The position numbers and the translations under genes were made by a program. A model generated the notes under the pieces. It saw only the letters and a list, made by a program, of their open reading frames with translations. It did not search any database and was not told the DNA's origin. From NCBI GenBank assembly GCA_964457375.1, contig CAYWFK010000004.1, positions 8,499 to 72,498 of the forward strand: a stretch of DNA of 64,000 bases. Direction: 5' to 3'. The stretch comes from an uncultured Anaerolineales bacterium (GTDB taxonomy: Bacteria > Chloroflexota > Anaerolineae > Anaerolineales > UBA11858). Below are positions 1,581-39,208 of the stretch, in pieces; position 1 is the stretch's first letter, and every line of letters begins with the position of its first letter.

Positions 1581-1608
1581 GACTTACGCAGGATTACCAG
1601 CTTTCCGT

Positions 1609-3201: not shown

Positions 3202-3245
3202 CATTCACCGCCCGCTTCCGGCAGCCCTGGCAGCAGCATGCCTTT

Positions 3246-3488: not shown

Positions 3489-3506
3489 AAACTTTTCCTT
3501 TTCTCA

Positions 3507-4565
3507 TTACAATACAAGATTGAATAAATACCCTGTCGTAATCATTGCAAATACCAGAATTACGATGAAAATGCCGATCAATTTCGGTTTGAGCACACGG
3601 CGCAAAATAATCATTTCCGGCAGGCTCAACCCGACCACGGACATCATAAACGCCAGCACCGTTCCCAATGCAGCCCCTTTCTCCATCAACGCATGCACGA
3701 CCGGAATGATTCCCGCCGCATTGGAATAAAGCGGTACCCCCAGCAACACACCGGCAGGCACCGACCACCACGCGTTCTTCCCCAAAATCTGCGCCAAAGC
3801 ATCTTCCGGAACATATCCATGAATGCCGGCACCGATTGCAATCCCGACAATTACATACAGCCAGACTTTCCCCACAATCTCTTGCGTGCTGTCCCATGCC
3901 GTGCGAAAACGTTCCTCCCAAGTGAGTTTCCCTTTATCGGTTTCCGCATGCCCCACCTTGATTTGCCAGACAAAGTCTTCGACATACCGCTCCAGATTCA
4001 ACCGCCCGATGATGATGCCCGAAACAATCGCAATCACCAGCCCCGTGCCCAGATACAACCCGGCGACTTTCCACCCGAACAATCCGAAAAGCATCACCAA
4101 CGCCACCTCGTTCACCACCGGAGTCGCCGTCAGAAACGAAAATGTTACCCCAAGGGGAATGCCCGACTCGACGAACCCGATAAAAAGCGGCACTGCCGAA
4201 CAGGAACAAAACGGTGTAACCACGCCCAGAAGCGCAGCCAACGCATTACCAATCCCTTCTCGCTTGCCGCCCAGCCATGCACGCGTTTGCTCAGGAGTGA
4301 AAAATGACCGAACGACGGTTATCAGAAAAATCATACCGCCCAGCAAGAGAAGAATTTTCGGCACGTCATAAAAAAAGAATGCCAATGCGTCTCCTATATG
4401 AGAACCTTCGGATTGCCCCAGAAGTCCGTAAACAAACCAGCGGGTAACAGGTTGAAGCGTCCGGTAGACAACAACCCACAACACCGCAATGCCTCCGACA
4501 AGCAAGAAAATTCGTTTGTCCGTGTTCCGCTTGAAAACCCCTGTACTACTGTTACCGCTTTCCAT
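3507..4565 (-). CDS. permease, DUF318/ArsP-like (UPF0718)
   Basis: 352 aa and multi-TM. The TPFCSCSAVPLFIGF motif is characteristic of DUF318/ArsP-type permeases, which are commonly paired with the small thioredoxin-like gene. Confidence 0.8.
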   Translation of the reverse strand: MESGNSSTGVFKRNTDKRIFLLVGGIAVLWVVVYRTLQPVTRWFVYGLLGQSEGSHIGDALAFFFYDVPKILLLLGGMIFLITVVRSFFTPEQTRAWLGGKREGIGNALAALLGVVTPFCSCSAVPLFIGFVESGIPLGVTFSFLTATPVVNEVALVMLFGLFGWKVAGLYLGTGLVIAIVSGIIIGRLNLERYVEDFVWQIKVGHAETDKGKLTWEERFRTAWDSTQEIVGKVWLYVIVGIAIGAGIHGYVPEDALAQILGKNAWWSVPAGVLLGVPLYSNAAGIIPVVHALMEKGAALGTVLAFMMSVVGLSLPEMIILRRVLKPKLIGIFIVILVFAMITTGYLFNLVL

Positions 4566-4649
4566 AGCACCGCCTTCATATTCGTAATCTTGAATATGAT
4601 TATATCCTCTTTATCACGACCAAACACAGACATATTGTCACCTTATCCT

Positions 4650-4665
4650 TGTGATATTCATCACA
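4650..4665. promoter_or_regulatory. perfect CRP/FNR-type palindrome TGTGA-N6-TCACA
   Basis: TGTGATATTCATCACA is read directly. It is centred about 92 nt upstream of the permease start (4565, minus strand) in a 303-bp divergent intergenic region. Confidence 0.4.
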
Positions 4666-4868
4666 GAATTTCAAGAAGCCAATACGGGCATAACACCCCG
4701 CCTGTATCCCCTCTCTTGTTATCACCAAGAGACAAAAATTAAATTATATCGACCCCGGGCAGGCGCTCCGGCGGCCAAACCGGATTGGGAATTGGCAAAA
4801 CCGGAAATCTAACCTAGAATAGAAAAAACAAGGCACGTCACACATATAAAAGGAACAAGGCATTCCGA

Positions 4869-5423
4869 ATGAAAGCATTTTCCAACTGGCTTTACCGGAT
4901 TTCTACCAACCGCAATACACTGATTACGCTAGTCATCTTCGTCCTGTTTGCTGCTCTCGCACTTCCCCGCATGCTCGATACTCCCTGGATCAAGGCTGCG
5001 GGTTTGCCGGATACAACGCTTGTCTACTCGGCACATGATCTTTACACCATGGCGGAAGCCTACGGAGAATCCGGGCGGGCAGCGTTCACGCCCTGGCACT
5101 TCACCTGGGATCTGGCGTTCCCCATAGTTTACACAGCGTTGCTTTTGATTGCCGGCAGCTGGCTCATTCGCCCGGTGTCAGCGACTGCTTCCCGATGGCG
5201 GTTTGTAAACACCTTGCCGCTCATCGGTTTTCTGCTGGATTTACTGGAAAACGGCGCGGCATCTTTCGTCATCACGCATTACCCCGCCCGCACGCCAATG
5301 GCAGCCATCGTACCGATCATCACTCTCGTAAAATGGTCATCGATCGGCATAACAATTGTCATCCTGCTCGCACTTGGTGTGCGCGGCATCAAACAACGCA
5401 AAGCGCATCCTTTGGCACGTTGA
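4869..5423 (+). CDS. hypothetical membrane protein
   Basis: 184 aa with several hydrophobic helices. No family recognised. Confidence 0.55.
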   Translation: MKAFSNWLYRISTNRNTLITLVIFVLFAALALPRMLDTPWIKAAGLPDTTLVYSAHDLYTMAEAYGESGRAAFTPWHFTWDLAFPIVYTALLLIAGSWLIRPVSATASRWRFVNTLPLIGFLLDLLENGAASFVITHYPARTPMAAIVPIITLVKWSSIGITIVILLALGVRGIKQRKAHPLAR

Positions 5424-5525: not shown

Positions 5526-5975
5526 ATGAAAAAACAGCCATCCAACCGTCTCACCGCCGGAGAAACCATCGCTTTGTGGATGCTTGGTATCCTTGGCGCA
5601 TCCGTGCTGGCTGCCATCCTGTGGTCGTTTTTCACCGACACCTTGCAGCCATTACTCCACCGCGGCGCAAATTGGCAAGCAGCGTCCAACATCCTTGGGT
5701 TCGGGCTGATATTAACGGGGTTGGGCTTTCTCATCTTCGGCGGGCTTTCGTTTTTAGCCGGCTCATACCAGACCCTGCAATCTCCGCTGCTTCGGAAAAA
5801 CCGCGAACAAATCCGCGCTAACACATCACCGGAATCTGTCCGACAAGCCCGACACGAAAACATGCGCCTGCTCTGGCGCACCTGGAAAAGCGCATTACGT
5901 TGGATTGGTCTGGGTATCTTGTTGATTGCCCTTGGGGCACCCTTCACATGGAACCCGCCCTTTGGGTTGAATTGA
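5526..5975 (+). CDS. hypothetical membrane protein
   Basis: 149 aa with 4 predicted TM segments. No family recognised. Confidence 0.55.
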   Translation: MKKQPSNRLTAGETIALWMLGILGASVLAAILWSFFTDTLQPLLHRGANWQAASNILGFGLILTGLGFLIFGGLSFLAGSYQTLQSPLLRKNREQIRANTSPESVRQARHENMRLLWRTWKSALRWIGLGILLIALGAPFTWNPPFGLN

Positions 5976-6144
5976 ATTAAAATGAAACGCCGTCTGGCTT
6001 TCACAGCAACCGGCCGCCGCCAGAATCCTCCCGAATGTTACTCTCCCCCGGAACGCCCCCTCCTTTCGTGAGAATACGCCTTTCCATACCCCCGAAACGT
6101 TTGCCTGGCTTCGCTGTGGTTTTCCCCGATCAAACCATTACCAT

Positions 6145-6471
6145 TCAATACTTCAAATCTTCCCGCACAGGGTGGAAGACATCCAACAAACGCGCCGGGG
6201 TATCCCCGACCCGCACCCCGTGAGGCACATTCCCCGGAACAACGTAAACATCACCGGCTTTGAGAAGATGTTCTTCGCCATCCAAAATAAAAACCACTTC
6301 TCCCGAAACCACCATCCCGACCTGCTCATGAGGATGCCGGTGCACCGCCATCGCACTGTGCGCATCCAAATCAACAATGGCAAGAAGCATATCTTTCCCC
6401 CAGAATGTTCGCCCGGCAATCCCATCCTGAAGCATTTTCACATCCCGGTTTTCGATATTGTAAATTGGCAT
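6145..6471 (-). CDS. cupin domain protein
   Basis: 108 aa with HRHPHEQVGMVVSGE ... GDVYVVPGNVPHG, a two-motif cupin signature. GAGGAG SD. Confidence 0.8.
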   Translation of the reverse strand: MPIYNIENRDVKMLQDGIAGRTFWGKDMLLAIVDLDAHSAMAVHRHPHEQVGMVVSGEVVFILDGEEHLLKAGDVYVVPGNVPHGVRVGDTPARLLDVFHPVREDLKY

Positions 6472-6525
6472 GGGTTTCTCCTCATCAGGCAGGGATTTGC
6501 TTCCAACCCGCCCGTCTCCAAATAT

Positions 6526-7626
6526 TTATGGTTTTGCCTTTTCATAAACCCGCTGAAATTCATTTAGGAACAGAAGAGCCACTTGACGGCTGTGGATGAT
6601 CAACACATTTTCATCATTACGTTTCTCTGCACTCTTGCTGAAATTATACGATCCCGTAATCACAACCGAACTATCGACAATCATCGTCTTGTGATGCATA
6701 TTATTACGATTACCGTCCAGGCGTACATCCAGCCCTGCTTTCACGAAGCGGTCGTAATCCGAACCGATATTGGAATAATACTGGCTTTCTTCCAGCACAC
6801 CGGAAACCGCCACGCCCTTGTTGGACAAATCGAGAATATCATTGGCAAGCGGGTTGGAAGTAAATGAAAACGCCATGAAAGAAAACATATTCCTGGCAGT
6901 ATTAATCACCTTCCCAATCCGTTTGGCAACGCCGTCATCCGGAGAAAACAAGGTTTCCACCTCGACGCCATCGATCACCAAAGACGGGTAAGGCGTGTTT
7001 CGTTCGACATGATCGCCAAAATGATCGTCCGTGAACATTTCCTCGAACTCGGTGGTGTAATTTTCTGCCAGTCGTCTTGAACGAATCCGCATAAGCACAT
7101 TATCATTGCGATAAGCGCCCGTTGTCGTGAAATTCATCGAGCCTGTCCACACTTCAGAACCGTCGATGACGACAAACTTGTTGTGCATCAAACTTTCACG
7201 GCGGTCGCCCAAAACAGGGATTCCCGCATCGATCAAATCCTGCATTTCCGCTTCGTCGATATTGTCCGACTCGGTCACAACCCGCACGGTTACGCCGCGG
7301 CGATGAGCACACAGCAACGCATCGCGAATACTCCACAAGTTCAGACGATGGATAGCAACATCGACCCGCAGTCGTGCCTGCTGAATTGCCAAAGCCAGCG
7401 CTTCATCCGGTCCGCCGCGGTAAGAGCCGGCATGCGGGCTATCAGGGTCCGTAAAATACACCGTAATCCAGTCCGGCATTTTACCGGCAACAATGCCGGT
7501 TTCCCATCCATCATCCGCAGTCGACAGCGGTTTGCCCGCCTGTGATTGTTGCAGCAGCGGAATGCACGCAGCCAGAACCAACAGAAAGAATACACTTGTC
7601 AAAAAAAGAAGAAATCGTTTTCGCAT
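6526..7626 (-). CDS. secreted phospholipase D / HKD-family phosphodiesterase
   Basis: Two HKD motifs (HNKFVVIDGSEVWTGSMNFT and HHKTMIVDSSVVITGSYNFS). N-terminal signal peptide with LVLAAC lipobox. Confidence 0.85.
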   Translation of the reverse strand: MRKRFLLFLTSVFFLLVLAACIPLLQQSQAGKPLSTADDGWETGIVAGKMPDWITVYFTDPDSPHAGSYRGGPDEALALAIQQARLRVDVAIHRLNLWSIRDALLCAHRRGVTVRVVTESDNIDEAEMQDLIDAGIPVLGDRRESLMHNKFVVIDGSEVWTGSMNFTTTGAYRNDNVLMRIRSRRLAENYTTEFEEMFTDDHFGDHVERNTPYPSLVIDGVEVETLFSPDDGVAKRIGKVINTARNMFSFMAFSFTSNPLANDILDLSNKGVAVSGVLEESQYYSNIGSDYDRFVKAGLDVRLDGNRNNMHHKTMIVDSSVVITGSYNFSKSAEKRNDENVLIIHSRQVALLFLNEFQRVYEKAKP

Positions 7627-7830
7627 TATTTTTCCTGAGTTAAATTTTCCTTACCCTCCGGAGCGAATGATTGGTATTCATCTCCGGTATTGTCACCCGT
7701 TAATTATAGCATTGAAGCATAATCGGCAATCAAACATCCCCGCCCGCCAACAAAAAGCCACACTCATGGTACACTTACCCGCTGAAACAACCCACATCCA
7801 ATCACTCGCAAAACGACAACAGGAAAAGCA

Positions 7831-8385
7831 ATGACACACCTTTTCGTCATCCGCCATGGAGAAACCGATTTCAACGCCGAAGGACGCCTTCAGGGAAGCA
7901 TCGACACAGACTTGAACGACAAAGGAATTGCCCAGGCAAGGCAGGCAGCAGACAATCTGCTTGGGATGGGGATTGAGGCGATTGTTTCTTCACCCCTGAA
8001 ACGCGCCAGTCAAACCGCTGCAATCATCGCCGAAAAACTGCAGTTAGAGGTTCTTTATCTGCCTCAGTTCGTCGAACGCTGTCTCGGTTTTTTCGAGGGG
8101 ATGACGTATACAGAAATCGGGAAGAATTACAAGACGGAACTGGAAACATGGACGCGGCAATATTTTTCCGCACCCCCTGGCGGCGAATCAATTTTCGAAG
8201 TCAGCCTGCGCGTCCACAACGGGTTGGAGCGTATCCATAGCCTTTACCCGGAAAAAACCGTGCTTCTTGTTACTCATGGCTATGTCGGAAGAATCATTCA
8301 CGGCATCCAAAACAAACTGACAGACAAAGCGTTTTACGAATTCTTGCCAGCCAACGGAGAGATTGCAGAATACATTTTCGATTAG
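7831..8385 (+). CDS. histidine phosphatase family protein (phosphoglycerate mutase-like)
   Basis: LFVIRHGETDFN (RHG motif) at the N-terminus and VTHG later. Confidence 0.85.
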   Translation: MTHLFVIRHGETDFNAEGRLQGSIDTDLNDKGIAQARQAADNLLGMGIEAIVSSPLKRASQTAAIIAEKLQLEVLYLPQFVERCLGFFEGMTYTEIGKNYKTELETWTRQYFSAPPGGESIFEVSLRVHNGLERIHSLYPEKTVLLVTHGYVGRIIHGIQNKLTDKAFYEFLPANGEIAEYIFD

Positions 8386-8506
8386 GAAATACCGGTTTTC
8401 CCGCACCCTTTCCGGCTTTTATATCCGCGTTTTTTCGGGCGAATAATCCGGCCAGCCATGTTCATTTTCACCTGCAAGAGACTTCGCCACTCAATTCTCC
8501 CGCCAG

Positions 8507-8524: not shown

Positions 8525-8626
8525 ATTTCAATTGCACCGAACCGAAACATCAAGTATACTTGACAAAACAAACCGTCCTGCAACATTCTTTTTCATCAAC
8601 ACCCATCTATTCCAAGGAAAAAGCCC

Positions 8627-9448
8627 ATGTCCTTTGACGAACCCAGCCCCGAATTACTCCCCGTCAGCAATGAAACCAAATCACCGAAGCAAAACAAAAA
8701 CACCTGGATTTTCATCCTGATTGCGGCAATTGTCATCATTTGCCTTTGTCTCGTCGCACTGGCATTAGGATTCCAGGCGTATCGAATAGTCACCAGTGAA
8801 ACCAATACCCAAGATACGGGAACCGCTGAAGCCCAACAGGCGGAAAGCACATCCGGCGAAAGCATTCCCACCGATGAAATCGAAAGTTGGACATTGCTGG
8901 CAGACGAGCCGTATAACGAGAACGATTTGGACTGGGTAGAAGGAAATATCGATGATGAATATGTCAGCATGACATTGACCATCGACAACCATTATCTTTG
9001 GGAAGGCGTTACTCGCAAGGGTTTTGTCTGGCGTGCCTGGCCTGATTTGGATGACGTCAGTGATTTCTACCTAAGCGTCGACACACAAAACACGGGCACC
9101 AACAAAGATGCTTATTACGGTCTGGTTTTTCGCCAAACAGAAGATGATCAATACTACCTTTTCGATATTCGCGACAACGGCACCTATGAAATTTACAAAC
9201 ATCAACAAAACGAATGGATCGAACTGGTCTCTCTGACATCGACCGACACTATCAAGGCAGGAGAAACCAACAAGTTAAGTGTTATGGCTTGGGATGGCTG
9301 GTTCTCGTTCTACATCAACGGGATTCTCGTGCATCGTCTCGTCGAAGGCATTCCCCCCGAAGGGAAAGTTGGTGTTGCCGTCGGGGCAAGCAACGATGGT
9401 GATACATTCCGGATACTATTCGATAATTTCACCTTGCGGGTCCCGTAA
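8627..9448 (+). CDS. membrane-anchored protein with concanavalin-like (DUF1080/LamG-like) C-terminal domain
   Basis: N-terminal TM anchor (WIFILIAAIVIICLCLVALALGF). The C-terminal beta-rich region (YGLVFRQ..YYLFDI..G.YEIYK...FYINGILV) resembles DUF1080-type jelly-roll domains. Confidence 0.6.
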   Translation: MSFDEPSPELLPVSNETKSPKQNKNTWIFILIAAIVIICLCLVALALGFQAYRIVTSETNTQDTGTAEAQQAESTSGESIPTDEIESWTLLADEPYNENDLDWVEGNIDDEYVSMTLTIDNHYLWEGVTRKGFVWRAWPDLDDVSDFYLSVDTQNTGTNKDAYYGLVFRQTEDDQYYLFDIRDNGTYEIYKHQQNEWIELVSLTSTDTIKAGETNKLSVMAWDGWFSFYINGILVHRLVEGIPPEGKVGVAVGASNDGDTFRILFDNFTLRVP

Positions 9449-12500: not shown

Positions 12501-13000
12501 CCGCGAAACAAGCCGGCTGCCATTTCCAGATGCTCACAGCATGTTTTGCATGCTTCGATTTTCCTGTGCGAGTGATTTTTTGCAGTCACCACCAAAGAAG
12601 AAAACGTCTCGACATCCAGGTTGTACGCACTCTCCGGATTGAATTGAATATCCTGCCGGGAAATTCGCAACCGGGGCGGACTCGCCGCAGCATCCCTGAT
12701 TACGCTGCGCAAATTTGCCAAAGCGTCCCGCAGATTTTTCAGCGCAACCTTTTCAGACCGTCCGGGCCAAAGCATTTCTGCTAAAACTTCACGGCTATGG
12801 GGACGTCCGGATTCGACCATCAGATAAGCCAGCAAGATACGTACTTTCTGCGAATCAAAATGCGTCAGGTTCACATCATCCAAACCCGCCTGAAATACCC
12901 CCAAGAGAGACACTCCCAATTGCGCCATTAATATGATTATAGCAGAGGAGATTATCTCCCCCGGCGTTTTCCCGACGCTTGATTTGTAGAATGGATCCAT
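9557..13000 (-). CDS. SARP/BTAD - NB-ARC (STAND) ATPase - TPR transcriptional regulator (AfsR-like)
   Basis: N-terminal winged-helix plus BTAD region (ERALDFAYRQVEIDPWRETAYEQLMLLLVHCGERSTALKQYQVCRKILADELGIEPT). Walker A is AGVGGVGKT and Walker B is LLLVLDNFEQ, followed by about 450 aa of TPR repeats (NNLG...A..Y...SL). The true start may be the internal ATG at 12928 (MAQLGVSLLGVF). Confidence 0.9.
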   Translation of the reverse strand: MDPFYKSSVGKTPGEIISSAIIILMAQLGVSLLGVFQAGLDDVNLTHFDSQKVRILLAYLMVESGRPHSREVLAEMLWPGRSEKVALKNLRDALANLRSVIRDAAASPPRLRISRQDIQFNPESAYNLDVETFSSLVVTAKNHSHRKIEACKTCCEHLEMAAGLFRGHFLEGMFLNGSHQMQNWIALRRERYDQQAQYVFSALVQYYIRQMKYERALDFAYRQVEIDPWRETAYEQLMLLLVHCGERSTALKQYQVCRKILADELGIEPTESIRRLYEQIRTGEMPAMPQSPPPAGFPMQFTSFVGREEELKQIAGKLQNPACRMLTLAGVGGVGKTRLALQAAMEQTFAFRDGVYFVPLDAVSQFPALVMAIAESLSVSFWGKDDLPGKVIDFLRKKELLLVLDNFEQFLAGDAAGVDFLEEILREAKSVVLLVTSRQAVRLAAEWLFEVRGFQYPEREDDAKPVDSYQAVQLFLERSRQVQACFEPSGADLQAIVGICSLVEGLPLGVELAAALVRVHSCSRIFGFMEQRMGTLRSDIRNVPERHRSLQAVFTCSWDLLTRREREAFMALSVFMGGFTFEAADDVLARWKRGDAEGGKQATERISGLVFGLVDKSLLRFDAGENRFQMHGLVHRFARKKLDEFPDAAVQVRRSHAVWCACFLAGKAPAMFGEEQAAVLKLLRSENGNLSAAWKWALTAGEDELVWQMAPGLFRFYSLQGWEAQGLDAFTKAVETFGKREEAAKRTRLFARLLAYAGVFKMRLSSYREARADLQSSLDISTEKDDKETQAFCLLNLGQIGYNTGDWSLSYECYENSRRINQQLGNFRGKALCENNLGILVSRQGKFDKALEYWEASLTYFTESGDLSRKGSLQNNLGVIYRRLGQYASAAACLKDALHAFDILHDQRSVAGVYNNCGLLAKEWGKYQQAEVYFQKSLAICQEIGERKGNVFCLNNLGLLALAREETDKAEDYFRRSYALSTEIELLSSKATALHNLGMAAVRKGNIDTAQRFFADSLALKMQLGNESGSGHTYLELGKLAMKVHRERDVLTHLQKAWKIASEIRSRPLMLEILFVWAKRIYDSGDTEKAAGLLAAVIGNPACLGEVKAEAERFAMDKKLDVTLSDGYMENPDPEMLADSMLRGIAG

Positions 13001-13226
13001 GACACCTTCGGAACCCGATTATTTCGCCTATCTCCTTCGTTTATGGACAGTTACAGAAAACGGGAAACTTATATGGTTGGCTTCTCTGGAAGACCCGCTT
13101 ACTTCCGAACGTAAAGGCTTCTCTTCGATTGAAAATTTGTATGCCTTTCTCGAAAAACAAATCTCGCTTTCTGAAGAGGAAAAAGCGCGCAATCAAGTTC
13201 ATGATTCCCGCGATGCCGGGGAATAA
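12999..13226 (+). CDS. small conserved-looking hypothetical protein (YLLRLW...ASLEDP...FSS.E.L..FL)
   Basis: 75-aa ORF that is the first gene of the operon divergent from the SARP regulator, 23 nt upstream of the next CDS. From memory the motif pattern resembles small ORFs seen beside STAND/LuxR regulators. There is no clear SD. Confidence 0.4.
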   Translation: MTPSEPDYFAYLLRLWTVTENGKLIWLASLEDPLTSERKGFSSIENLYAFLEKQISLSEEEKARNQVHDSRDAGE

Positions 13227-13249
13227 CACAACCATCAAGGAATAAAACC

Positions 13250-15046
13250 ATGATCAACAAACGCAGCTTTCTTGTATTACTGGCAATGTGCCTGCTTTCC
13301 TTTACCGGACAAAGTGCCGCTCAGCCATCAGTCACTTCTCAATCCGGCGGCGATGGCACCACCGAGGACACCTCACCGGCAGCCACAACGCTGCTTGTCT
13401 CGCTGGAAACCAACCCGCTTGTCGTCGACACCGGTATCAACGAAAACATCACCCTCATTGCACACACAGACGGGTCGATTGACAGTGCATCCGTTTCACT
13501 TGCCAACGGCACGACAGTGCCCATGACGAAACTCGGCATCGGGCTTTTCAGTGTCGTACTCACCCATCAACAGGTTTTGTACCATTACAACCAAACACTT
13601 TACCCGAATGTCAACCGTTATGGATTCATCAATCTTTTCATCGGAAGTTTCCGCGTTCTTCGCGGCAGGCTGGATATTGGCGTCGATGACGGCAAATTCC
13701 CGTCCGCAGCCATCTCATCGCTCGCATCAGACGCTCAGGCCACACCGCACCTGGTCAACATCGTCCGCAGTTTTGTCGATCCGTCCAAAATCGACCAGCA
13801 GGCAGTCACCAAACGTTTCTATCAGCTTTATGGGGACGATTATGATTTCATCAATATCATTTCCGTCCCCGAACACTTTTCGAACCGCTATCATTATCAA
13901 GTCAAAAATACCGTTTCCGGCATCGGTTTGAGCAAATTCGATAATACCGCAGACTATGGCAGCGCCGGAAAACTTAAGGGCATCACCCGTTTCCCAATTC
14001 CGGTTCTGTATTTCGACGGTGCATCCCGCGCACACTCCCACGAAACCGCACATCAATGGCTCCAGTTTCTTAATAATGTCACCAAACTTCAGGGAATAAC
14101 CCCGCACTGGCCTATATCCGAATTAGCCCGTTCGGTCATGGGGTACAGTTCAACGGGAGGTCAAGGGCTTGACTTCCCCTGGAATCTAACCCCCAAGGGG
14201 AACGGCGATTACACAGCCCATTACACCCCGCTTGCCGACGATTACTTCCAAAACATGGATCTCTATCTCATGGGTTTTGCCGCTCCGTCCGAGGTTGGCA
14301 ACTATGTTGTCTTTACCAATCAAAACCAAACTCTCTGCGATGGCTGCACCATTACCAAACCGACTGTGTCGGTCGGGGTTCAGGATGTTACCGCCCAATA
14401 CGGCGCCCGTACCCCCGGTTATCCGAACACACAGCATCATTTCAGAATCGCCACCATCATCGTATCGAAGCAGCTTCTCTCAGCCAGGAACATGAAATAT
14501 TTCGATTATTTCTCCCGGCGGGGCGAAGCCATGATTCCCATTCAGGGAAACATCCCCTGGTTCAATGCCACAAAACAGCGCAGCACGCTATCCATGGGGC
14601 TAGGCAATGATTGCAACACAAACACCACAGCCGACCTTTGGATATACAGCCACACCACATCCCCCGTTGTTCCTCAAGTCAACACTCAATTTACTATCTA
14701 CGCATCTGTAAACAACGCATCTGCCAATACTTCCCATCAACTTACCATCTTCAACACGTTGTCAAATGGGCTTACCTTCATTTCGGCAAAACTAAACGGC
14801 AGTACGTCCCGTTGTTATGGTGACAAAACCATCATTTGCACCTTCGATACCCTTCATGCAAGCGAGAACTTGACTCTGGCGATAACCGTTCGCGCAGCAA
14901 CCAAGGGCTATTATTTTCATCGCATCGGTGTTTCCGGCTGTAACCCCGACCAGACACCCACCGACAACGCTGCAACCCTCACAATTCCGGTCGGCATTCA
15001 ATTCAACAACAAAATTTATATTCCATTCGTTATCAAAAGCCAATAA
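13250..15046 (+). CDS. secreted HExxH (gluzincin-like) putative metallopeptidase with C-terminal DUF11-type domain and YIPFVIK tail
   Basis: Signal peptide MINKRSFLVLLAMCLLSFTGQSAAQ. HETAHQW resembles the M1 HExxHQW motif and a Glu lies 23 aa downstream. DLYLMGF is also present. The C-terminal roughly 110 aa look like a DUF11 repeat, and the protein ends NNKIYIPFVIKSQ. Confidence 0.75.
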   Translation: MINKRSFLVLLAMCLLSFTGQSAAQPSVTSQSGGDGTTEDTSPAATTLLVSLETNPLVVDTGINENITLIAHTDGSIDSASVSLANGTTVPMTKLGIGLFSVVLTHQQVLYHYNQTLYPNVNRYGFINLFIGSFRVLRGRLDIGVDDGKFPSAAISSLASDAQATPHLVNIVRSFVDPSKIDQQAVTKRFYQLYGDDYDFINIISVPEHFSNRYHYQVKNTVSGIGLSKFDNTADYGSAGKLKGITRFPIPVLYFDGASRAHSHETAHQWLQFLNNVTKLQGITPHWPISELARSVMGYSSTGGQGLDFPWNLTPKGNGDYTAHYTPLADDYFQNMDLYLMGFAAPSEVGNYVVFTNQNQTLCDGCTITKPTVSVGVQDVTAQYGARTPGYPNTQHHFRIATIIVSKQLLSARNMKYFDYFSRRGEAMIPIQGNIPWFNATKQRSTLSMGLGNDCNTNTTADLWIYSHTTSPVVPQVNTQFTIYASVNNASANTSHQLTIFNTLSNGLTFISAKLNGSTSRCYGDKTIICTFDTLHASENLTLAITVRAATKGYYFHRIGVSGCNPDQTPTDNAATLTIPVGIQFNNKIYIPFVIKSQ

Positions 15047-15076
15047 ACCCTGTTCCCCAAAACAAAGGAAAAAGTC

Positions 15077-16594
15077 ATGTTCCTGAAAACAGATGTCATC
15101 AAACGCCCACTTGAAAAAGGAATGCAAATCGTCAAAACGTGTTTACCATTCATGCTCATGGTAGTCATGGCAATCCCGATAAGCTTCTTCAACCGGGAAT
15201 CAGTCAGCGCCGCGCCGCAATCTACCTTCATCGTAGTCGCCGACGCTGATGATTCAAACGCCCATGATAAAAACCCAGGAGACGGTATTTGTGCCGACCA
15301 ATTGGATACCTGCACCTTGCGGGCTGCAATTGAAGAAGCAAACGCCCATCATGGCGCAGATACGATTACATTCTCTCAACAGATGTCCATTATGATCGAT
15401 AGTACAGAAGGCCCCCTGCCTGCCCTGGTCAAAACGGTGAAAATCGACGCCAGCAGCATGTGGAATACAACCCTCGACCAGCCGGGAGTAACAATCAATG
15501 GGAACGGCGCTCATTTCAACGGACTTCGAATTTCCGCCCTCTACTGTGAAGTTTACGGACTGACGATTAGAAATTTCTATTGGAGTGCTATTATCATCAA
15601 TACAAGCAACAACACCATTGGGGGCACAACGAAAACACAGAGAAACGTCATTTCCGCCAATGCAAATAACGGGATTGCCATCCTTGGCAATCAGGCGAAT
15701 TCGAACACAATTCAGGGGAACTTCATTGGCATCAATCCAAAGGGAAACGCAAAATTACCGAATAAACACAACGGCATTCTCATAAAAGACGGTGCATCTT
15801 ACAACAAGATTGTTTCCAATGTCATTTCCGGTAATCTTCTGGATGGTATTCTCATCCAGTCTTCCAATACGCAACTCAGCTACGGAAACAAAATCGGCAA
15901 CAATGTCATCGGTCTTTCTGATGACCTCGGCACAATAATTCCCAACAAAGGAAACGGCATCAGCATCATGTCATCACCGAATACAAAAATCGGCGGTCCC
16001 GGCCTTTCCGGAAATATGATTACCGGGAACAGTATCAACGGCATCTATCTTTTTGCATCAAACGATACCCTGATTCAAGATAACATCATCGCCGGAAACA
16101 ACCAGGATGGCATCTATATCCACAATAGCCAAAAAACGAATGTCCTTTCCAATATCATCGACAATCAGGAACAAAACGGGATACTCATCAATGGCAGCAC
16201 CGGGAGCACTGCCAACAAAAACAATCTCACCCGGAACAGTATTTATTCCAACAAAAAGAAAGGGATTTCCCTGATAGGGAACAGCAACAACAATATTCAA
16301 CCCCCAATCATCGGTTCCGCAAACAGCCACGGTGCAGCAGGAACCGTTCCCAATGGCGTCCGCATTGTCGCAGTTTTTTCAGATAGTGAGAATGAAGGGA
16401 AAATTTACCACGGGCAATGTATCGTCAATACAATCACCCACCAATGGTTTTATACCGGTGCGATTACCGGCCCGCATGTAACTGCACTCGCATATGACCT
16501 CGATGGCAATACATCCGAGTTCTCAACGCCTTACACAATCAGCAATCCGGGTAGTTACCAGATTTATCTGCCATTCGTCTTGCGCAACCCCTAA
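15077..16594 (+). CDS. secreted parallel beta-helix repeat protein with CSLREA-like N-terminal module and YLPFVLR tail
   Basis: Signal/anchor sequence, then GDGICADQLDTCTLRAAIEEANAHHGADTITF, a CSLREA-domain variant. More than 12 PbH1-like repeats follow (N.I.GN...GI.I). DLDGNTSEFS is present and the protein ends SYQIYLPFVLRNP. Confidence 0.8.
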   Translation: MFLKTDVIKRPLEKGMQIVKTCLPFMLMVVMAIPISFFNRESVSAAPQSTFIVVADADDSNAHDKNPGDGICADQLDTCTLRAAIEEANAHHGADTITFSQQMSIMIDSTEGPLPALVKTVKIDASSMWNTTLDQPGVTINGNGAHFNGLRISALYCEVYGLTIRNFYWSAIIINTSNNTIGGTTKTQRNVISANANNGIAILGNQANSNTIQGNFIGINPKGNAKLPNKHNGILIKDGASYNKIVSNVISGNLLDGILIQSSNTQLSYGNKIGNNVIGLSDDLGTIIPNKGNGISIMSSPNTKIGGPGLSGNMITGNSINGIYLFASNDTLIQDNIIAGNNQDGIYIHNSQKTNVLSNIIDNQEQNGILINGSTGSTANKNNLTRNSIYSNKKKGISLIGNSNNNIQPPIIGSANSHGAAGTVPNGVRIVAVFSDSENEGKIYHGQCIVNTITHQWFYTGAITGPHVTALAYDLDGNTSEFSTPYTISNPGSYQIYLPFVLRNP

Positions 16595-28793: not shown

Positions 28794-29032
28794 GGTTTCT
28801 TCTCAATCATCATTGTGGGATTCGCATGCCAGCGTATCGATGAGCGCAACATTGCCGGGAAAAACAAAGAAGTATTATAGCCTATTTTCAGCCGTGTGGG
28901 ACGGATTGCCCGGTGATAAATTGCCGGAAAGCAAAAACAACAGTGTCCTGCCGGTTTTACGGAACGCCTTACCGCATTGTCTTTGTCTGCCAAGCCGCTT
29001 GCTTTCCCCCGTTGGAAACCCTCCGGATGCAG

Positions 29033-29602
29033 TTACTCGTCTTCCAGCGTCTCCCCTTTGGCAAAAAAGTACCCTTTGATGAATGCCCGCGCTTCGTCGG
29101 CGCGCGGGTATGCCGTTTTCAGGGTTTCCCAAAACGCTTTGCTGTGGTCCGGATAAAGCCTGTGCGTCATTTCATGGGCAATGACATAATCCAGCACCCA
29201 ATCGGGAAAACCGGCAATCTTTGCAGAAATGCGGATATGCCCGTCTGTCGTTCCCCCGCTGGTGCAGGAACCGAGGCGGCTGTTCATGTTGTTCACCCAG
29301 CGGATTGCCTGCCACCGGATTTTCCCCCTGAAATATTTTCGGTTGATTTTTTCCGCCCGCTTTTGAAGATCCGCGTCCGTCCTTCCGGTCTTCCTGCGGG
29401 TCAACTTTTCCAGCTCATCTTCCAAATGCCGGAGAATTTCAGAATAATACCGCCTGGACAAGCGATAAGGGACGCGAACCAAAATCTCATCATCTTTCCG
29501 AAGCTGGTAACGGGTGGTCTTCTTCAGCCGCTTGTCCTTGCGGAAGATCACCCGGTAGGTTCTTCCCTGCTTGTCTCGAATCGTATAATCCCGTTCGAAC
29601 AT
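29033..29602 (-). CDS. DUF45/YgjP-like (M48/WLM-like) zinc metallopeptidase
   Basis: VIAHEMTHRLYPDHSKAFW contains the HExxH motif. The ATG overlaps the TGA of the upstream ATPase gene (TGATG). Confidence 0.8.
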   Translation of the reverse strand: MFERDYTIRDKQGRTYRVIFRKDKRLKKTTRYQLRKDDEILVRVPYRLSRRYYSEILRHLEDELEKLTRRKTGRTDADLQKRAEKINRKYFRGKIRWQAIRWVNNMNSRLGSCTSGGTTDGHIRISAKIAGFPDWVLDYVIAHEMTHRLYPDHSKAFWETLKTAYPRADEARAFIKGYFFAKGETLEDE

Positions 29603-32133
29603 CAACGTCCGCCGGCACCCGCCCTGAAACCCGGAACTTCGCGTGTGCGGCCTTCCGTTTCGACAAGATAATACGGGAACCAGGCAACCCCGAAAAGGTC
29701 CAGATAAATATCCTTTTTATAGGGCTGGACGGGAATTTCCTCTTCATCGTCCGCAATCTCGCGCCACTTTGCCTTGATTTCATCGATGCGCTCAGCCATT
29801 TCCTTTTCCAGCGCTTCGATTTGCTTTTTGTAATCATCGATTGCATCGATGGATTCATCCACATCCGCCTTGGCTTTTTCTGTCATCCGGTGTTTGGAAA
29901 GCGAAGAAGAAATGCTGCGCCGTCGTTTTCCAAGAAGGAAGCTGAGTACATTCTCGGCATGTGTTCCGTATTCTTCCATTTTTCGCTGTGAAAATTCGCT
30001 CTCATCTTCCCGCAGCTCTCTTTCCTCGCGTGCCAGCCGTTCCCGCAGGGTTTTAAGCTTGCGGTTGTACGTCCGTTCGACTTTGTCGGCTTCCTTTTCG
30101 AGGCCCCCGCGTGCAGCCTCGCTGCACCGCTTGCGAAAATCCGCCTGCGAAACCTCGGGACCGGCATAAACTTTCAAGGCTGTATTCGCCCGTACACGTA
30201 CCTCCGCATTGCGATACACCCAATCCGTGAAATCTTTTTGCAGCGAACGAAGCGTAACCGCATCGTTCAGGGGAGCATCCAGAGAAGCAAAAACCGCATT
30301 CGGAGCAGGCTGCCTGTCAAGGCTGCGAACATCAATCGGGTCATACAGCCAATCTTCCCAATTGACAACCCCGCGCCTGTCTGTTTCCTCGACCAGCACG
30401 GTGCGGATATCTTCCATATCCAGGTCATACTTTCGTTGCAGGTAACGGATATTCGCCTGGCAAAGCAAAACAGGGCGGTAAATCAGGCGGTTTTGCTTGA
30501 TGTCATCGGGCAGCGGGTGTCTTTCCGTCTTGGCTGCTTCCGAAAGCGTAAGGTTGTTCGGCAGAAAATACTCTTCCACCTTCGCCGGAACAGGCGGTTT
30601 CGTCCCCGACCCCAACGCGGCATCCCCTTTGCGGCGGGCGCTCTTCCGGGCGGACGCCCGTCCGCCGGCAGCTGCGGATGTCGCTGAAGCTTCGTGCCCG
30701 CCGGCGTCTTTTCCTTCTGCGGCTACCTGCGGTGATGCACCGGCTAACGCATTCAGCGCCGGAATCTGCACGCGGGTCAGCGGCCCGGCAAGATAGTTCA
30801 TTGCCCAGCGTGTATGAAAGACTCTGGCACCTTTATCATGCACATTATGTGCAAGAAAAACGCGCTTCCCAAGCCCTGAAATCAGTTTGTCATACCCTCG
30901 CCGGTCGATACCGGGGTCTGCGCCTTGCAGACCGTCCAGCAAGCGCTCCTTGTCCCGGTCGGTCTGGAGTTTGCCGACGAACCATGTGCCCGCGTTGGAA
31001 AGCGCTTTATAATCCACATCCACGGGATTCTGGGTCACCAGCACCTGCCCGACGCCAAAGGCACGAGCCTGCTTGAGCATGCGAAGCATCAATGGCTTCG
31101 AAGGCGGATTTTGCACCGGCGGCAAATAGCCGAAAATTTCATCGAAATAAACAATCGCCCGCAAATTAGTCGTCCCCTTCTGAATTCGCATCCATGATTC
31201 GATGGCAGAATAAAGCAAGGTAACGAAAAACATTCGCTCTGCATCTGTCAAATGGGCAATATAAAACACACTATGCCTCGGTTTCCCGTCCGGAGTATAT
31301 AACAGGCTGGGAATATCCAAAGGCTGCCCTTCTATCCAGGTCTGAAACGATGGTGCAGCAATGATATTGTTTAGCAGCATAGCCAACTCGAAGCGGTCTT
31401 TTTCAGGGAAGAATGTATCGACATCGAATACACCCAGCTTGGGAAAAGGCGGTGTTTGCGTTTGCAAAATCAATTCTCCCAAATCCAGGTCTTTTCCCCT
31501 GCTCCACGCATGCTCGAAAATATTACTTACCAGAATATGTTCACGCGAACGCACCGGATCGATATCATCCACCCCGACCAATCCAAGCAAGGCGGTCACC
31601 GTCCCGGAAATCTTTTCCCGCAGCAATTCCTTGTTTCGCTCCCAGGATAGTTTCGGCGCCTTGAGGTTGGCAAGAATACTCACCGGAATACCCGCATCGG
31701 AACCCGGCGTATACACTGCAAATTGCACTTTTTCCTGCAAAGCACGAATACGTTTGCCATCGATTCCCCACTTTGCCAGCCCCTTCTTCCACAAGCCGGC
31801 TGTATCGCTTGCCGCCTCTTCGATACTCTTTCCGTCCTGACGGGCAACATCCGGGTTGACCCAGGGCTGAAAATCCGACGGCAGTAAATCCGGGAAATGC
31901 AAAAGTGCATTGGTAATATCCCCCTTGGGGTCGATCATCAATGCAGGAATTTGATTCAGGGCAGCTTCTTCAAGCAAGTCGATACACAACCCCGTTTTTC
32001 CTGAACCAGTCATTCCCACGACAACCGCGTGGGTCGTTAAATCATCCGGGTCATAGAGATATGCATCGGAAGTAATCTCGTTCTTTTTTTGGTCAATAAT
32101 CCGGCCAAGATAAAAATCGCCGTTTGTTTGCAT
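29602..32133 (-). CDS. HerA/FtsK-superfamily P-loop ATPase (DUF87/DUF853-like) with long coiled-coil C-terminal extension
   Basis: Walker A GMTGSGKTG, DPKGD, Walker B-like IVYFDEIF and VTQNPVDVD occur in the same order as in YjgR/HerA-type ATPases. The C-terminal roughly 370 aa hold an Ala/Gly/Arg linker and a Glu/Lys/Arg-rich coiled coil. Start at ATG 32133 behind AGGAGTGAAGG. Confidence 0.8.
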   Translation of the reverse strand: MQTNGDFYLGRIIDQKKNEITSDAYLYDPDDLTTHAVVVGMTGSGKTGLCIDLLEEAALNQIPALMIDPKGDITNALLHFPDLLPSDFQPWVNPDVARQDGKSIEEAASDTAGLWKKGLAKWGIDGKRIRALQEKVQFAVYTPGSDAGIPVSILANLKAPKLSWERNKELLREKISGTVTALLGLVGVDDIDPVRSREHILVSNIFEHAWSRGKDLDLGELILQTQTPPFPKLGVFDVDTFFPEKDRFELAMLLNNIIAAPSFQTWIEGQPLDIPSLLYTPDGKPRHSVFYIAHLTDAERMFFVTLLYSAIESWMRIQKGTTNLRAIVYFDEIFGYLPPVQNPPSKPLMLRMLKQARAFGVGQVLVTQNPVDVDYKALSNAGTWFVGKLQTDRDKERLLDGLQGADPGIDRRGYDKLISGLGKRVFLAHNVHDKGARVFHTRWAMNYLAGPLTRVQIPALNALAGASPQVAAEGKDAGGHEASATSAAAGGRASARKSARRKGDAALGSGTKPPVPAKVEEYFLPNNLTLSEAAKTERHPLPDDIKQNRLIYRPVLLCQANIRYLQRKYDLDMEDIRTVLVEETDRRGVVNWEDWLYDPIDVRSLDRQPAPNAVFASLDAPLNDAVTLRSLQKDFTDWVYRNAEVRVRANTALKVYAGPEVSQADFRKRCSEAARGGLEKEADKVERTYNRKLKTLRERLAREERELREDESEFSQRKMEEYGTHAENVLSFLLGKRRRSISSSLSKHRMTEKAKADVDESIDAIDDYKKQIEALEKEMAERIDEIKAKWREIADDEEEIPVQPYKKDIYLDLFGVAWFPYYLVETEGRTREVPGFRAGAGGR

Positions 32134-32269
32134 GCCTTCACTCCTGAATTGAAACGTATTTGTCCTCACCTATTCTACCTAATTTTATCAAATTTGAGAC
32201 AGTAATACACCCCGGAAAATCAAACCCGCAGAACCGCGCTTGCCCGCATGAATACCCATTCACTTCGAT

Positions 32270-32306
32270 AGAGAAAAGGCCGTATTCATCGACGATGAAT
32301 ACGGCC
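32270..32306 (-). terminator. rho-independent terminator of the DegV gene
   Basis: GGCCGTATTCATCG-a-CGATGAATACGGCC is a 14-bp stem followed on the minus strand by TTTTCTCT. Confidence 0.8.
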
Positions 32307-36736: not shown

Positions 36737-39208
36737 TTAACGCTTTTCTGCCTCGATCCACATTTTTTCACCGTCAGTAATGATCTCGATCCATCCGTTG
36801 AGATCCGTGCGCAAGAGCGAATACCCGTGAACGCTCTCCAACGCGGCTGGATTCGGCAAGCCGTCAGGGTCATCTGCCGCAACAGGAAGAAGAATTACCT
36901 GCGGATGCAAATTGCCAACCCATTCCGGCGGATTTGCCGGGGCATACCCATAGTCTGTTAGTAAGTATACGGATATATCCCCAAAAGGTTTCCCCATTTC
37001 AAGCGCCTGCATATCCTCCATCGATATTCCCAGCGGAAGAATAGCCCGAAACGCGCCTTTCTTCAACAGACATACCACACCGCGTCTCCCCGCGTGTAAA
37101 ATCCGCAAACTTACACCGTCCCCAAAATCAAGTGCTTGCCCTGTGCGTGTTCGCACCACCGACAGCCGCTGTTCCTTCAATACCTTTCTCAGTCGGTCAG
37201 CAGGTTTGTTCGCATTCAGCGGACCCGCCCAAAGGACCATCTTCGGAAGATAGCGGGTAACCAGGCCGGGCAGTGCGCGAATATCCTGCTCATTGGCAGA
37301 AGGCACCAGAAGCACGTCAAGCGCATGCTGCCCGAACGGCAGCCGCCTCCCCAGAGCGTCCGAAAGCAAACTGGTTTTCGAGCCGCCCCCAATCAAAAGC
37401 GTATGGCCGGTCGGTGTTCTGATAAACAATGCATTGCTGCTTCCGGTATCGAACAATGTCAAATGCAAATAACCGTCCGGTGCTGTTCTCACACCGCGCC
37501 ACAACAAGGCTGCCGACACCGACAACCCGACCAGCACCGGTATCGCCAATCGTTCGTACAAAGAACGCTGCTTCCATTGAATAAACTTGTTTTTCAATTC
37601 GCCGAACCAGGCTGTACCCGCAAACAATCCGGCATAATACAAAAAAACAAGCCCGATACCAACCCGCCCTACCACCAGTACGCCCCCCGGTAAAGGCGCC
37701 ATTGCTTCGACAACCCGGATCGTATACCCGGCAAAAAACCATGCCAGTGGAGCCGTCACAACGCCCAAAATATGCGAGACAAGCCCCGCCAACAACGCTA
37801 CTCCCCCCAGAATCATCAGCGGCGGTTGGGCAGGCAATATCAACGGATTGACCAGCAGGGAGGAAAGCGACAAGCGTTTGAAATGATATGCCAAAACGGG
37901 CAAAGTCGTCGCCTGAGCCGCCAGTGTAAACAGAAAATATTCCCCAACCGGACCAGCTATCTTCTTTACCAGACGAACGGGGAACCAGCGTGAAACAAGT
38001 GCGACGAACCAATCCTGCATTGGCTGAGCATAAAGCACCAAACCCAGCGTAGCGGCAAATGAAAGTTGAAACCCGACATCCCACAAAACATGCGGATCGA
38101 GCAGCCCCATCAAACCGGCAACCGCCGCCAAACTGTTCAACCCATGCTGTCTGCGCCCAAGCTGAACAGCCGTCAACGAAAAAACCGACATGATAGCAGC
38201 ACGTACAACAGCCGCATCTGCACCAACGAGCAGCGTATAAAACAGTACTCCCGCAATTGCCGCAGCCGCCGCCCAATAGCGCTGCATCACCCGCCCGAAT
38301 ATCCCAATCAGCAATCCGGCAATTATCGTGATATTGAAACCGGAAATAGCAATGATATGCGTCGTTCCTGTTGCCTTGAATGCGCTGGCAACCCTTGCAG
38401 AAATCCCGTTTTCAACGCCCAGTAAAATCCCCGCAATCAACGAAGCTTCCGGGTCATGCCACAAGCGGTAAACCTCATCCAGTGCCTTTTCCCTGAAAAG
38501 GAAAATAAACCGCATGAAAACATTCCCCTTTCGCACTCCCATGCCGGCAGCGGCTTGTGATGTCATCGTCGCGTAAACCCCTTTATGATAGAGATATGCC
38601 CTGTACGAAAAATCATCCCCATCCTGAGGCGTCTCGACTCTCCCCTCAACGACGACCAAATCCCCGTAATGCCATTTTTCTATTCTCGGAGTACGCACCA
38701 GCAGCAAGCCATGGACTTCTTCGTCATGAATGGCATCTTTCATCCGGATTTTTTCACAGGCAATCCACAAATTGGTATACCCGTCGCGCACATCAGGCGG
38801 TTTCACCAGCACACCGCTCACGACATAAACCAACCCATCATCACGCATCCGGGTAATCGCATGGGTATCCTTCAAATCCGGCAAGGAAACCTGATAACGA
38901 ACAGCACCGAGAAGCATCCCCGCAATCAGCAGCCATAACGACACCCCCGTAAACCGCAGTATCCTGGCAGACAAAAAGCCCTCGCCTGTTCCTGCCCGCC
39001 GATTGGAGAACCACCCAAAGCATAAGCCGGCACACACTGCAACCGCAGCGCCCGCCAGCCAAAGCTGCCATGGATTGGGGAAAAACGCAGCCAGCACGAT
39101 GCCCGCCATGAAAAACAATGACAGCCAGAATAAAGGCAAACGCCGAAAACGTCTACGTCTCGCAGTTGTTTTTGAATCACCGGATGATAAACCGGAGCGG
39201 GGAATCAT
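36737..39208 (-). CDS. comEC: ComEC/Rec2 DNA internalization channel with C-terminal metallo-beta-lactamase domain
   Basis: 823 aa. An N-terminal OB-like/DUF4131 region is followed by a polytopic competence domain (GTTHIIAISGFNITIIAGLL) and a C-terminal MBL-like domain. Confidence 0.9.
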   Translation of the reverse strand: MIPRSGLSSGDSKTTARRRRFRRLPLFWLSLFFMAGIVLAAFFPNPWQLWLAGAAVAVCAGLCFGWFSNRRAGTGEGFLSARILRFTGVSLWLLIAGMLLGAVRYQVSLPDLKDTHAITRMRDDGLVYVVSGVLVKPPDVRDGYTNLWIACEKIRMKDAIHDEEVHGLLLVRTPRIEKWHYGDLVVVEGRVETPQDGDDFSYRAYLYHKGVYATMTSQAAAGMGVRKGNVFMRFIFLFREKALDEVYRLWHDPEASLIAGILLGVENGISARVASAFKATGTTHIIAISGFNITIIAGLLIGIFGRVMQRYWAAAAAIAGVLFYTLLVGADAAVVRAAIMSVFSLTAVQLGRRQHGLNSLAAVAGLMGLLDPHVLWDVGFQLSFAATLGLVLYAQPMQDWFVALVSRWFPVRLVKKIAGPVGEYFLFTLAAQATTLPVLAYHFKRLSLSSLLVNPLILPAQPPLMILGGVALLAGLVSHILGVVTAPLAWFFAGYTIRVVEAMAPLPGGVLVVGRVGIGLVFLYYAGLFAGTAWFGELKNKFIQWKQRSLYERLAIPVLVGLSVSAALLWRGVRTAPDGYLHLTLFDTGSSNALFIRTPTGHTLLIGGGSKTSLLSDALGRRLPFGQHALDVLLVPSANEQDIRALPGLVTRYLPKMVLWAGPLNANKPADRLRKVLKEQRLSVVRTRTGQALDFGDGVSLRILHAGRRGVVCLLKKGAFRAILPLGISMEDMQALEMGKPFGDISVYLLTDYGYAPANPPEWVGNLHPQVILLPVAADDPDGLPNPAALESVHGYSLLRTDLNGWIEIITDGEKMWIEAEKR

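Follow-up and report, generated by a model that had tools for sequence, protein, structure and literature searches.

Ring ATPases of the FtsK/HerA superfamily are known from chromosome segregation, conjugation, end resection and phage defence, and HerA uses its HAS barrel to dock the partner proteins NurA, Sir2 or DUF4297. A gene pair that recalls such systems is found in a stretch of 64,000 nucleotides (the window in the following) from an uncultured Anaerolineales bacterium of the phylum Chloroflexota (GenBank assembly GCA_964457375.1, contig CAYWFK010000004.1, positions 8,499 to 72,498). It consists of a gene for a large ATPase and, directly behind it, a gene for a zinc peptidase of the YgjP/DUF45 family, called DUF45 here. 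An earlier note, made from the sequence alone, had regarded the two as a possible conflict or DNA-protein processing module. Guilt by association would class the pair as a candidate defence or repair system, but the comparative data show this to be mistaken. The two genes and their junction are located as follows.

29602 to 32133, minus strand: ATPase gene, 843 amino acids, FtsK/HerA superfamily (stop codon included), from the open reading frame, Pfam DUF87, the Shine-Dalgarno sequence and the N-termini of homologues
29033 to 29602, minus strand: DUF45 gene, YgjP/DUF45 (SprT-like) zinc peptidase of 189 amino acids, from Pfam PF01863 and PF10263 and the motifs
29600 to 29604, minus strand: TGATG junction of ATPase stop and DUF45 start with an overlap of one base, from the sequence

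With moderate confidence, the ATPase is read here as a chromosomally encoded ring motor that is complete in itself, its 'partner' being fused to it, and DUF45 as a lineage-specific accessory, rather than both as a mobile defence or conflict module. A two-gene defence system does not seem to be present, because the ATPase family is normally partner-less and the peptidase is optional in one branch only. The best explanation for the larger protein is that it represents a large, uncharacterised and usually partner-less branch of the FtsK/HerA ring motors.

All synteny counts rest on tblastn or whole-genome six-frame searches and not on gene calls, and the adjacency tallies for the order were compiled by hand from coordinate tables. 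Among 201 species representatives of the order, the ATPase was found in 151 (122 of the 146 high-quality ones), usually as one copy and mostly with 55-70% identity. A DUF45 orthologue with about 50-55% identity over the full length was identified by six-frame search in about 26 of the 201 genomes. In 12 of the 151 ATPase-bearing genomes (8%), namely G000, G250 and G352 of family f1, G322 and G302 of family f58 and seven of one genus in family f65, it follows directly behind the ATPase gene. In G312 the two genes are 2.6 kb apart, in G286, G204, G296, G301 and G244 they are located on different contigs, and in G216, G316, G281, G220 and G339 DUF45 is present and no ATPase was found. The ATPase occurs in 21 of the 26 DUF45 genomes (81%) compared with 151 of all 201 (75%), which is about the background rate. 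No DUF45 was found beside the ATPase in 26 other representatives of the phylum (tblastn of the flanks) or in the 80 full-length ATPase loci that resulted from a scan of the whole genome collection; the latter result is independent of gene calling, because it was obtained by tblastn. Both checks that the earlier note had suggested for its module, conserved synteny and co-occurrence above background, thus turned out largely negative.

The three nearest metagenomic relatives (80%, 72% and 69% identical) all have DUF45 beside the ATPase. In one of them, locus L032, an intact DUF45 gene of 189 codons with a GTG start is located at 8532-9101 on the plus strand, and the stored gene calls give an antisense open reading frame of 80 amino acids instead; a synteny count from gene lists alone would miscount this locus, because the calls miss its DUF45.

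In the ATPase tree (101 sequences), all 13 DUF45-linked genes fall into one clade of 24 members with an SH-aLRT support of 98, and 11 of these 24 are without DUF45. The groupings of the DUF45 tree agree with the ATPase tree, and the unlinked copies of G316, G216 and G296 nest among the linked ones. In G316, DUF45 directly follows the membrane-protein gene that is found upstream of the ATPase in the congeners G250 and G352, and as no ATPase was found in this genome, the locus looks like a clean deletion. It was recorded as L044 (contig C27 of G316, 2030-4871) and comprises an unannotated membrane protein of about 700 amino acids, then DUF45 and then a DNA methyltransferase-like gene with a TSPPY motif. 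In the simplest history, the pair originated once, was passed on vertically and came apart repeatedly, with loss of either gene from the other. DUF45 thus belongs to the operon in one branch only and optionally so, and a functional link between the two cannot be essential to either gene. Of the two-gene module that had been proposed, the tight coupling and the joint inheritance within one sub-clade, with agreeing trees and differing flanks, were borne out; elsewhere the two genes are not syntenic and each survives alone.

The ATPase itself is much more widely distributed. More than 8,000 close homologues with 64-80% identity were found, most of which carry the label Anaerolineales or Chloroflexota and no name other than 'DUF87 domain-containing' or 'ATP-binding protein'. 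In the wider phylum it is patchy, with 27 of 201 genomes in an even sample. Some of the 80 loci of the collection scan are labelled Chlorobiaceae, Saprospiraceae, Gemmatimonadota, Nitrospirales, Fermentibacteria, Thermaceae, Anaerovoracaceae or Bathyarchaeia, and the phylum labels outside Chloroflexota comprise Chlorobiota, Bacteroidota, Gemmatimonadota, Nitrospirota, Deinococcota and Bacillota. Binning errors may account for some of these labels. Within this Anaerolineales-type order, the ATPase gene is near-core, passed on vertically and located on the chromosome.

Two side observations concern the same family. Four homologues with 45-56% identity (L103, L115, L080 and L133), from metagenome-assembled genomes labelled Bathyarchaeia and Thermaceae/Oceanithermus, are nested among Chloroflexota in the tree, which reflects either horizontal transfer or binning error. 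In family f61, genomes carry two diverged ATPase paralogues, 41-47% identical to the query and 2-10 kb apart, one of which follows a gene of the PLD family (L034, contig C38 of G315, 2232-4682 and 12751-15249; L035, contig C43 of G305, 1120-3567 and 5905-8400).

The large gene is a member of the FtsK/HerA superfamily of P-loop ring ATPases. Its protein is divided as follows.

30739 to 32133, minus strand: ATPase domain, residues 1-465, with Walker A at 40-48, DPKGD at 68-72, Walker B at 328-334 and the sensor at 366-374
30604 to 30738, minus strand: disordered A/G/R-rich linker, residues 466-510, predicted local distance difference test (pLDDT) 26-33, length and sequence varying among homologues
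29605 to 30603, minus strand: family-specific C-terminal module, residues 511-843, in which two long beta hairpins and helices build a beta domain that carries a coiled-coil hairpin
29749 to 30147, minus strand: antiparallel coiled-coil hairpin, residues 663-795, with helices 663-731 and 743-795 in the models
29881 to 29931, minus strand: hairpin tip GKRRRSISSSLSKHRMT, residues 735-751, a conserved basic, Ser-rich loop

The Pfam profile DUF87/HerA (PF01935) reaches 33.4 bits compared with a cut-off of 23.2, and the profiles FtsK, AAA_10, HerA_C and TrwB all score under their cut-offs. The motifs which the earlier note had listed, GMTGSGKTG, DPKGD, VYFDEIF and VTQNPVDVD for the ATPase and HEMTH for the peptidase, were all found, those of the ATPase in the order given there, and its assignment of the two proteins to a HerA/FtsK-like ATPase and a YgjP/DUF45 peptidase was correct. 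The positions of Walker A, DPKGD, Walker B and the sensor motif are invariant across 50 homologues. The ATPase was modelled with AlphaFold2 on an alignment of these 50 homologues. According to the secondary structure of the model, only two beta strands (7-14 and 19-27), which form a beta hairpin, precede Walker A, and a HAS barrel, which needs an N-terminal beta-barrel domain of about 100 residues, is not present in it. A Foldseek search with the motor domain yielded DndH-C, HerA, Sir2-HerA, DUF4297-HerA and TdpA with a probability of 1.0 and 12-17% identity (E 2e-8 to 5e-6 for DndH-C, HerA, Sir2-HerA and TdpA). By sequence, the motor is remote from all of its structural matches.

A second model was made of the C-terminal half by itself, for which loci of the genome collection supplied a more diverse alignment (25-59% identity), and the module reached a mean pLDDT of 93.6 and a predicted template modelling score of 0.79. 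In this model, one beta domain is formed, from which an antiparallel coiled-coil hairpin of about 70 residues and about 100 angstrom projects. The earlier note had described an A/G/R-rich linker, a middle domain and a coiled coil in series; the linker and the coiled coil are present, and the supposed middle domain builds, together with the last 45 residues, the single beta domain which carries the hairpin. The fused module has no counterpart in Pfam, PDB or BFVD: Pfam at E-values up to 10 and a profile search of PDB returned coiled-coil noise only, and Foldseek gave no significant match in PDB (best E 0.057) or BFVD (best E 0.0045). EmrA, HlyD and p85 iSH2 were considered as homologues of the module and rejected as alpha-hairpin look-alikes. 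At the tip of the hairpin, residues S744, L745, K747 and R749 are invariant in the 50 homologues, and the tip may touch nucleic acid or a membrane, or may be a site of phosphorylation.

In a search of 1.84 billion representative proteins, the C-terminal half matched at least 1,721 clusters at 50% identity. The full-length matches bear the module at the C-terminus of proteins of about 820-920 amino acids, and shorter ones were taken as fragments from short contigs. Because the full-length matches hold it in this position, the module seems to belong to this ATPase family as a constant component and not to be shuffled between proteins.

The smaller protein reaches 76.8 bits with the YgjP-like profile PF01863 (cut-off 26) and 30 bits with the SprT-like profile PF10263 (cut-off 25.6), and the related WLM profile (PF08325), which overlaps SprT-like on the same stretch, scores 18.7 bits compared with a cut-off of 26. 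Its motifs are RLGSC at residues 109-113, HEMTH at 143-147 and HSKAFW at 153-158, the last of which supplies the third His at position 153. The positions HE..H and HS..FW are kept in 17 orthologues.

The following mechanism can be proposed. The ATPase would form a hexamer, as is assumed by homology, and would use ATP to move along or to pump a polymer, which by the same analogy is most likely double-stranded DNA. The six coiled-coil hairpins may then act as a built-in adaptor or clamp, and in this way the fused C-terminal module would stand in place of a separate docked partner. DUF45 probably entered the operon of the ATPase about once, at the base of a single sub-clade. From the arrangement in the window, it may be co-transcribed and is probably co-translated with the ATPase. 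If it acts with the motor, it would most plausibly remove or trim protein that is bound to the substrate of the motor.

Several points weigh against the reading of a self-contained motor with an optional accessory. Both the hexamer and DNA as its substrate are assumed by homology to other motors. The pair was kept while both flanks changed (window, L031, L032 and L033; families f1, f58 and f65), and the spacing between ATPase and DUF45 is always tight, from overlap to about 96 nt, which resembles a working operon, so that a real functional link in this lineage is possible. Some of the linked loci entered the tree on account of their linkage, and without this bias the frequencies amount to 12 of 151 and 0 of 80; furthermore, kin genomes are not independent samples, and the counts therefore overstate the number of events. 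Finally, few Chloroflexota are contained in the collections of 72,556 plasmid and 50,697 phage records, on which no member of the ATPase family was found.

The likeliest alternative is that ATPase and DUF45 are a genuine working pair in this sub-clade, in which the translocase tracks DNA and hands stalled or cross-linked proteins to the SprT/Wss1-like peptidase. We consider this unlikely, and the same holds for its more specific form, in which the pair is a bacterial analogue of Cdc48/p97 plus Wss1/SPRTN in the repair of DNA-protein crosslinks. The overlap of the ATPase stop with the DUF45 start, the joint inheritance with congruent trees and differing flanks, the HExxH-x5-H and RLGSC signatures of SprT/WLM-type enzymes in DUF45 and the DNA translocases that the motor most closely resembles in structure are all consistent with it. 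However, 92% of the ATPase genes of the order and all 80 of the wider sample are without an adjoining DUF45, DUF45 persists in genomes lacking the ATPase, and the two co-occur at about the background rate. The DUF45 copies without an ATPase neighbour also keep the same conserved motifs as the linked copies, and both DNA binding and an interaction between the two proteins are postulates of this explanation. It could be extended to a motor with six basic-tipped coiled-coil arms, which finds proteins stuck on or cross-linked to DNA and feeds them to DUF45, the partner-less family then being a new type of chromosomal motor for the clearing or handling of DNA, present in Anaerolineae and in scattered other phyla; this extension is regarded as quite improbable.

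A commoner companion than DUF45 was found by clustering of the neighbouring genes, namely a two-HKD lipoprotein of the PLD family directly upstream of the ATPase. The ancestral unit might therefore be this lipoprotein plus the ATPase, e.g., an envelope-linked nuclease and a motor for processing or uptake of extracellular DNA, to which DUF45 was added late and which is broken in the window. By a hand tally, the PLD gene lies directly upstream on the same strand, with gaps of 4-500 nt, in about 38 of the 151 genomes across at least eight families, and in addition in 17 of the 80 loci of the wider sample. The lipoprotein-type signals and the two PLDc_2 domains fit an envelope-linked nuclease, one locus (L058) has a different secreted nuclease of the ExeM/NucH EEP type in the same upstream position, and a ComEC gene is located 4.6 kb upstream in the window. 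Against this, the PLD protein occurs in 175 of the 201 genomes of the order whether the ATPase is present or not (in family f55 PLD in 7 of 7 genomes and the ATPase in 1 of 7, in family f66 in 4 of 13 and 0 of 13), and it is absent from many ATPase-bearing genomes, such as those of family f3 with the ATPase in 17 of 17 and PLD in 6 of 17. Among the wider-sample loci, those from other phyla showed no PLD gene adjoining the ATPase, the replacement by another nuclease is known from a single case and is an anecdote, and the PLD protein is extracytoplasmic, whereas no obvious membrane segment is present in the ATPase. In the genome studied here the PLD gene is 22 kb away, at 6526-7626 on the minus strand of the window, and encodes a 366-amino-acid two-HKD protein with a lipoprotein-type signal (…LVLAAC) and two PLDc_2 domains. 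Since the association with PLD is more widespread than the DUF45 link and equally dispensable, it was rejected as the system proper and kept only as a rival, and a rather remote one.

The weakest explanation is that DUF45 serves as the effector in a 'HerA plus effector' type of conflict system against phages or plasmids, which is very improbable: the pairing of HerA-like ATPases with Sir2 or DUF4297 effectors in solved defence complexes, which are among the structural matches, the weak partial matches to the PADLOC profiles HerA and mad8 (residues 311-397 or 22-84) and a RelE/MqsA toxin-antitoxin pair and a DNA methylase beside some relatives can be cited for it, but the PADLOC matches span only generic P-loop segments (best E 2e-12) and DUF45 matches nothing, the anti-phage HerA of NCBIfam scores 18.6 bits versus 800, the HAS barrel is lacking, the ATPase is near-core, usually single-copy and vertically inherited with no family member on the plasmid and phage records searched, and the neighbours are housekeeping genes without defence matches in a sequence of unremarkable local composition. 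The conflict system that the earlier note had suggested is thus not upheld, and the PADLOC search which it had proposed matched no system for the pair or its neighbours. Its remark that no described HerA-DUF45 pair was known to it still holds, as none was found in PADLOC or in the searched literature, which yielded no paper on a HerA-DUF45/SprT pair or on DUF45.

Further candidates for the identity of the ATPase were tried and rejected. FtsK/SpoIIIE was excluded because PF01580 reaches 19.9 bits compared with a cut-off of 24 and the N-terminus is not hydrophobic; two genuine FtsK genes of about 204 bits each were found elsewhere in the same genome. A type IV coupling protein (VirD4/TraD/TrwB) was excluded by PF10412 (18.1 versus 20.5 bits) and TIGR03743 (14.7 versus 366 bits). 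No transfer genes were found near the ATPase in the window, and its match to IcmO/DotL is limited to the segment G-x-TGSGKT...D-x-KGD. HerA proper, as in HerA-NurA, was rejected on the missing HAS barrel, the missing NurA neighbour and NF040937 (15.5 bits versus 800), and a defence-type HerA on the partial character of its PADLOC matches, the score of NF042943 given above for the anti-phage HerA, the near-core distribution and the plasmid and phage records. YjgR/DUF853 is a borderline case and was not among the rejected families: its profile (PF05872) matches weakly with 20.1-21.7 bits, compared with a cut-off of 22, and at profile positions 21-62 only, and it is precomputed on many members of the ATPase family. 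No paper on the function of YjgR/DUF853 was found in the searched literature.

The organisation of the pair as a transcription unit was analysed from the following features.

32134 to 32160, minus strand: 5′ leader of the ATPase with an AGGAG Shine-Dalgarno sequence 7 nt before the ATG, from the sequence
32278 to 32306, minus strand: intrinsic terminator of the upstream DegV gene, a 13-pair stem (7 GC pairs) with a T tract
28938 to 28953, minus strand: weak terminator-like hairpin after DUF45 and before the GGDEF gene, a 6-pair stem with a T run, as a consensus match only

The list of open reading frames on the minus strand gives 29602-32169 (855 amino acids from a GTG) and 29033-29605. The start of the ATPase was set to the ATG at 32133, which yields the protein of 843 amino acids, because of the AGGAG 7 nt upstream and because the N-termini of the 50 homologues begin at the same residue. 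At the junction (CGT TGA TG), the ATPase stop and the ATG of DUF45 have one base in common, in line with the overlap given in the earlier note; the overlap increases to four bases if the TTG one codon earlier serves as start of DUF45. Because a DegV terminator lies before and a weak hairpin after the two genes, it is plausible from the sequence that they form their own two-gene transcription unit. A promoter scan of the locus gave results no better than shuffled sequence, and no Rfam RNA family was found between 27000 and 34500 of the window. The flanking genes that the earlier note had named, DegV and a GGDEF cyclase, were confirmed with Pfam. The neighbours in the window comprise these two as well as an S9 peptidase, a superoxide reductase, a GT4 glycosyltransferase, a DedA/VTT protein and ComEC, and none of them has a PADLOC match. 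The ComEC-type competence channel gene with Competence and DUF4131 domains is located at 36737-39208 on the same (minus) strand as the ATPase. The window PLD protein shows weak PADLOC matches to the PLD nucleases DrmC and DpdK.

In other genomes, the remaining flanks of the ATPase vary. Enzymes encoded there are a PEMT-like membrane methyltransferase, a DNA methylase, a glycosyltransferase, a trypsin-like protease and, in a single case, a large secreted EEP nuclease, and an anti-sigma-like protein also occurs; in other phyla the neighbours are unrelated and variable. The methyltransferase (PEMT/NnrU-like membrane protein, about 195 amino acids) recurs shortly behind the ATPase in about ten loci, most of which belong to an Anaerolineaceae-labelled branch (L062 at 6650-7234, L068, L070-L074, L054 and L105). 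The secreted nuclease of L058 (326-3826, plus strand) is a protein of 1166 amino acids with a lamin-tail domain, an OB fold and an ExeM/NucH-like EEP nuclease domain according to Pfam, and it lies 94 nt upstream of the ATPase, at the usual position of the PLD lipoprotein.

What remains of interest is a large, highly conserved and unstudied branch of FtsK/HerA, in which the docking barrel is swapped for a fused beta-domain and coiled-coil module. Finding the substrate of this ATPase would add a new architecture to the motor superfamily, and the optional SprT-like peptidase is one concrete, testable hint to its role.

In comparison with known systems, DUF45 resembles YgjP/DUF45 proteins (COG1451) and the SprT/Wss1 (WLM) peptidases in that it passes both PF01863 and PF10263 and has an HExxH with a third His six residues on, and it aligns around the zinc site with the WLM domain of S. 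pombe Wss1 (5jig, E 0.006). It differs in that typical YgjP proteins are longer than its 189 amino acids, it does not adjoin type I restriction genes here and the WLM profile stays under its cut-off. For the motor, the C-domain of DndH is the top Foldseek match (E 1.8e-8, template modelling score to target 0.62). DndH and TdpA are motor subunits of phosphorothioate-sensing defence (PDB 7es4, 8wfd), but no dnd, tdp or phosphorothioation genes are located nearby and the likeness is confined to the motor fold.

HerA of the HerA-NurA machinery for DNA end resection in Sulfolobus, Deinococcus and Thermococcus (PDB 4d2i, 7f6d, 9x1m) has the same RecA-like P-loop motor, with about 450-550 Foldseek columns at E 3e-8 to 3e-6, and its Walker B and sensor segments align by sequence with the ATPase. 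However, the ATPase has neither a HAS barrel nor a NurA neighbour, the identity is 12-16% and the HerA profile of NCBIfam lies far under its threshold, whereas HerA is without the extra C-terminal half of 375 residues. Sir2-HerA (Nezha) and DUF4297-HerA (PDB 8wld, 8uae, 8j4u, 8zir, 9c1m) have the same motor fold and likewise combine an ATPase with a possible hydrolase, and Sir2-HerA provides the best PDB sequence match of the ATPase (8wiv, E about 1e-7). These systems are mobile and patchy and their effector docks on the N-terminal barrel, whereas the ATPase described here is near-core, chromosomal and barrel-less, and the peptidase beside it is missing in most relatives. Finally, YjgR/DUF853 of E. 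coli (PF05872; PDB 11kk) differs by its length of about 500 amino acids and its different C-terminal region, and the match of the ATPase to it is weak (20-22 bits compared with 22) and limited to the P-loop segment, but the two are alike in that Walker A is located near the N-terminus, a HAS barrel is lacking and the protein is encoded by a stand-alone chromosomal gene of unknown role.

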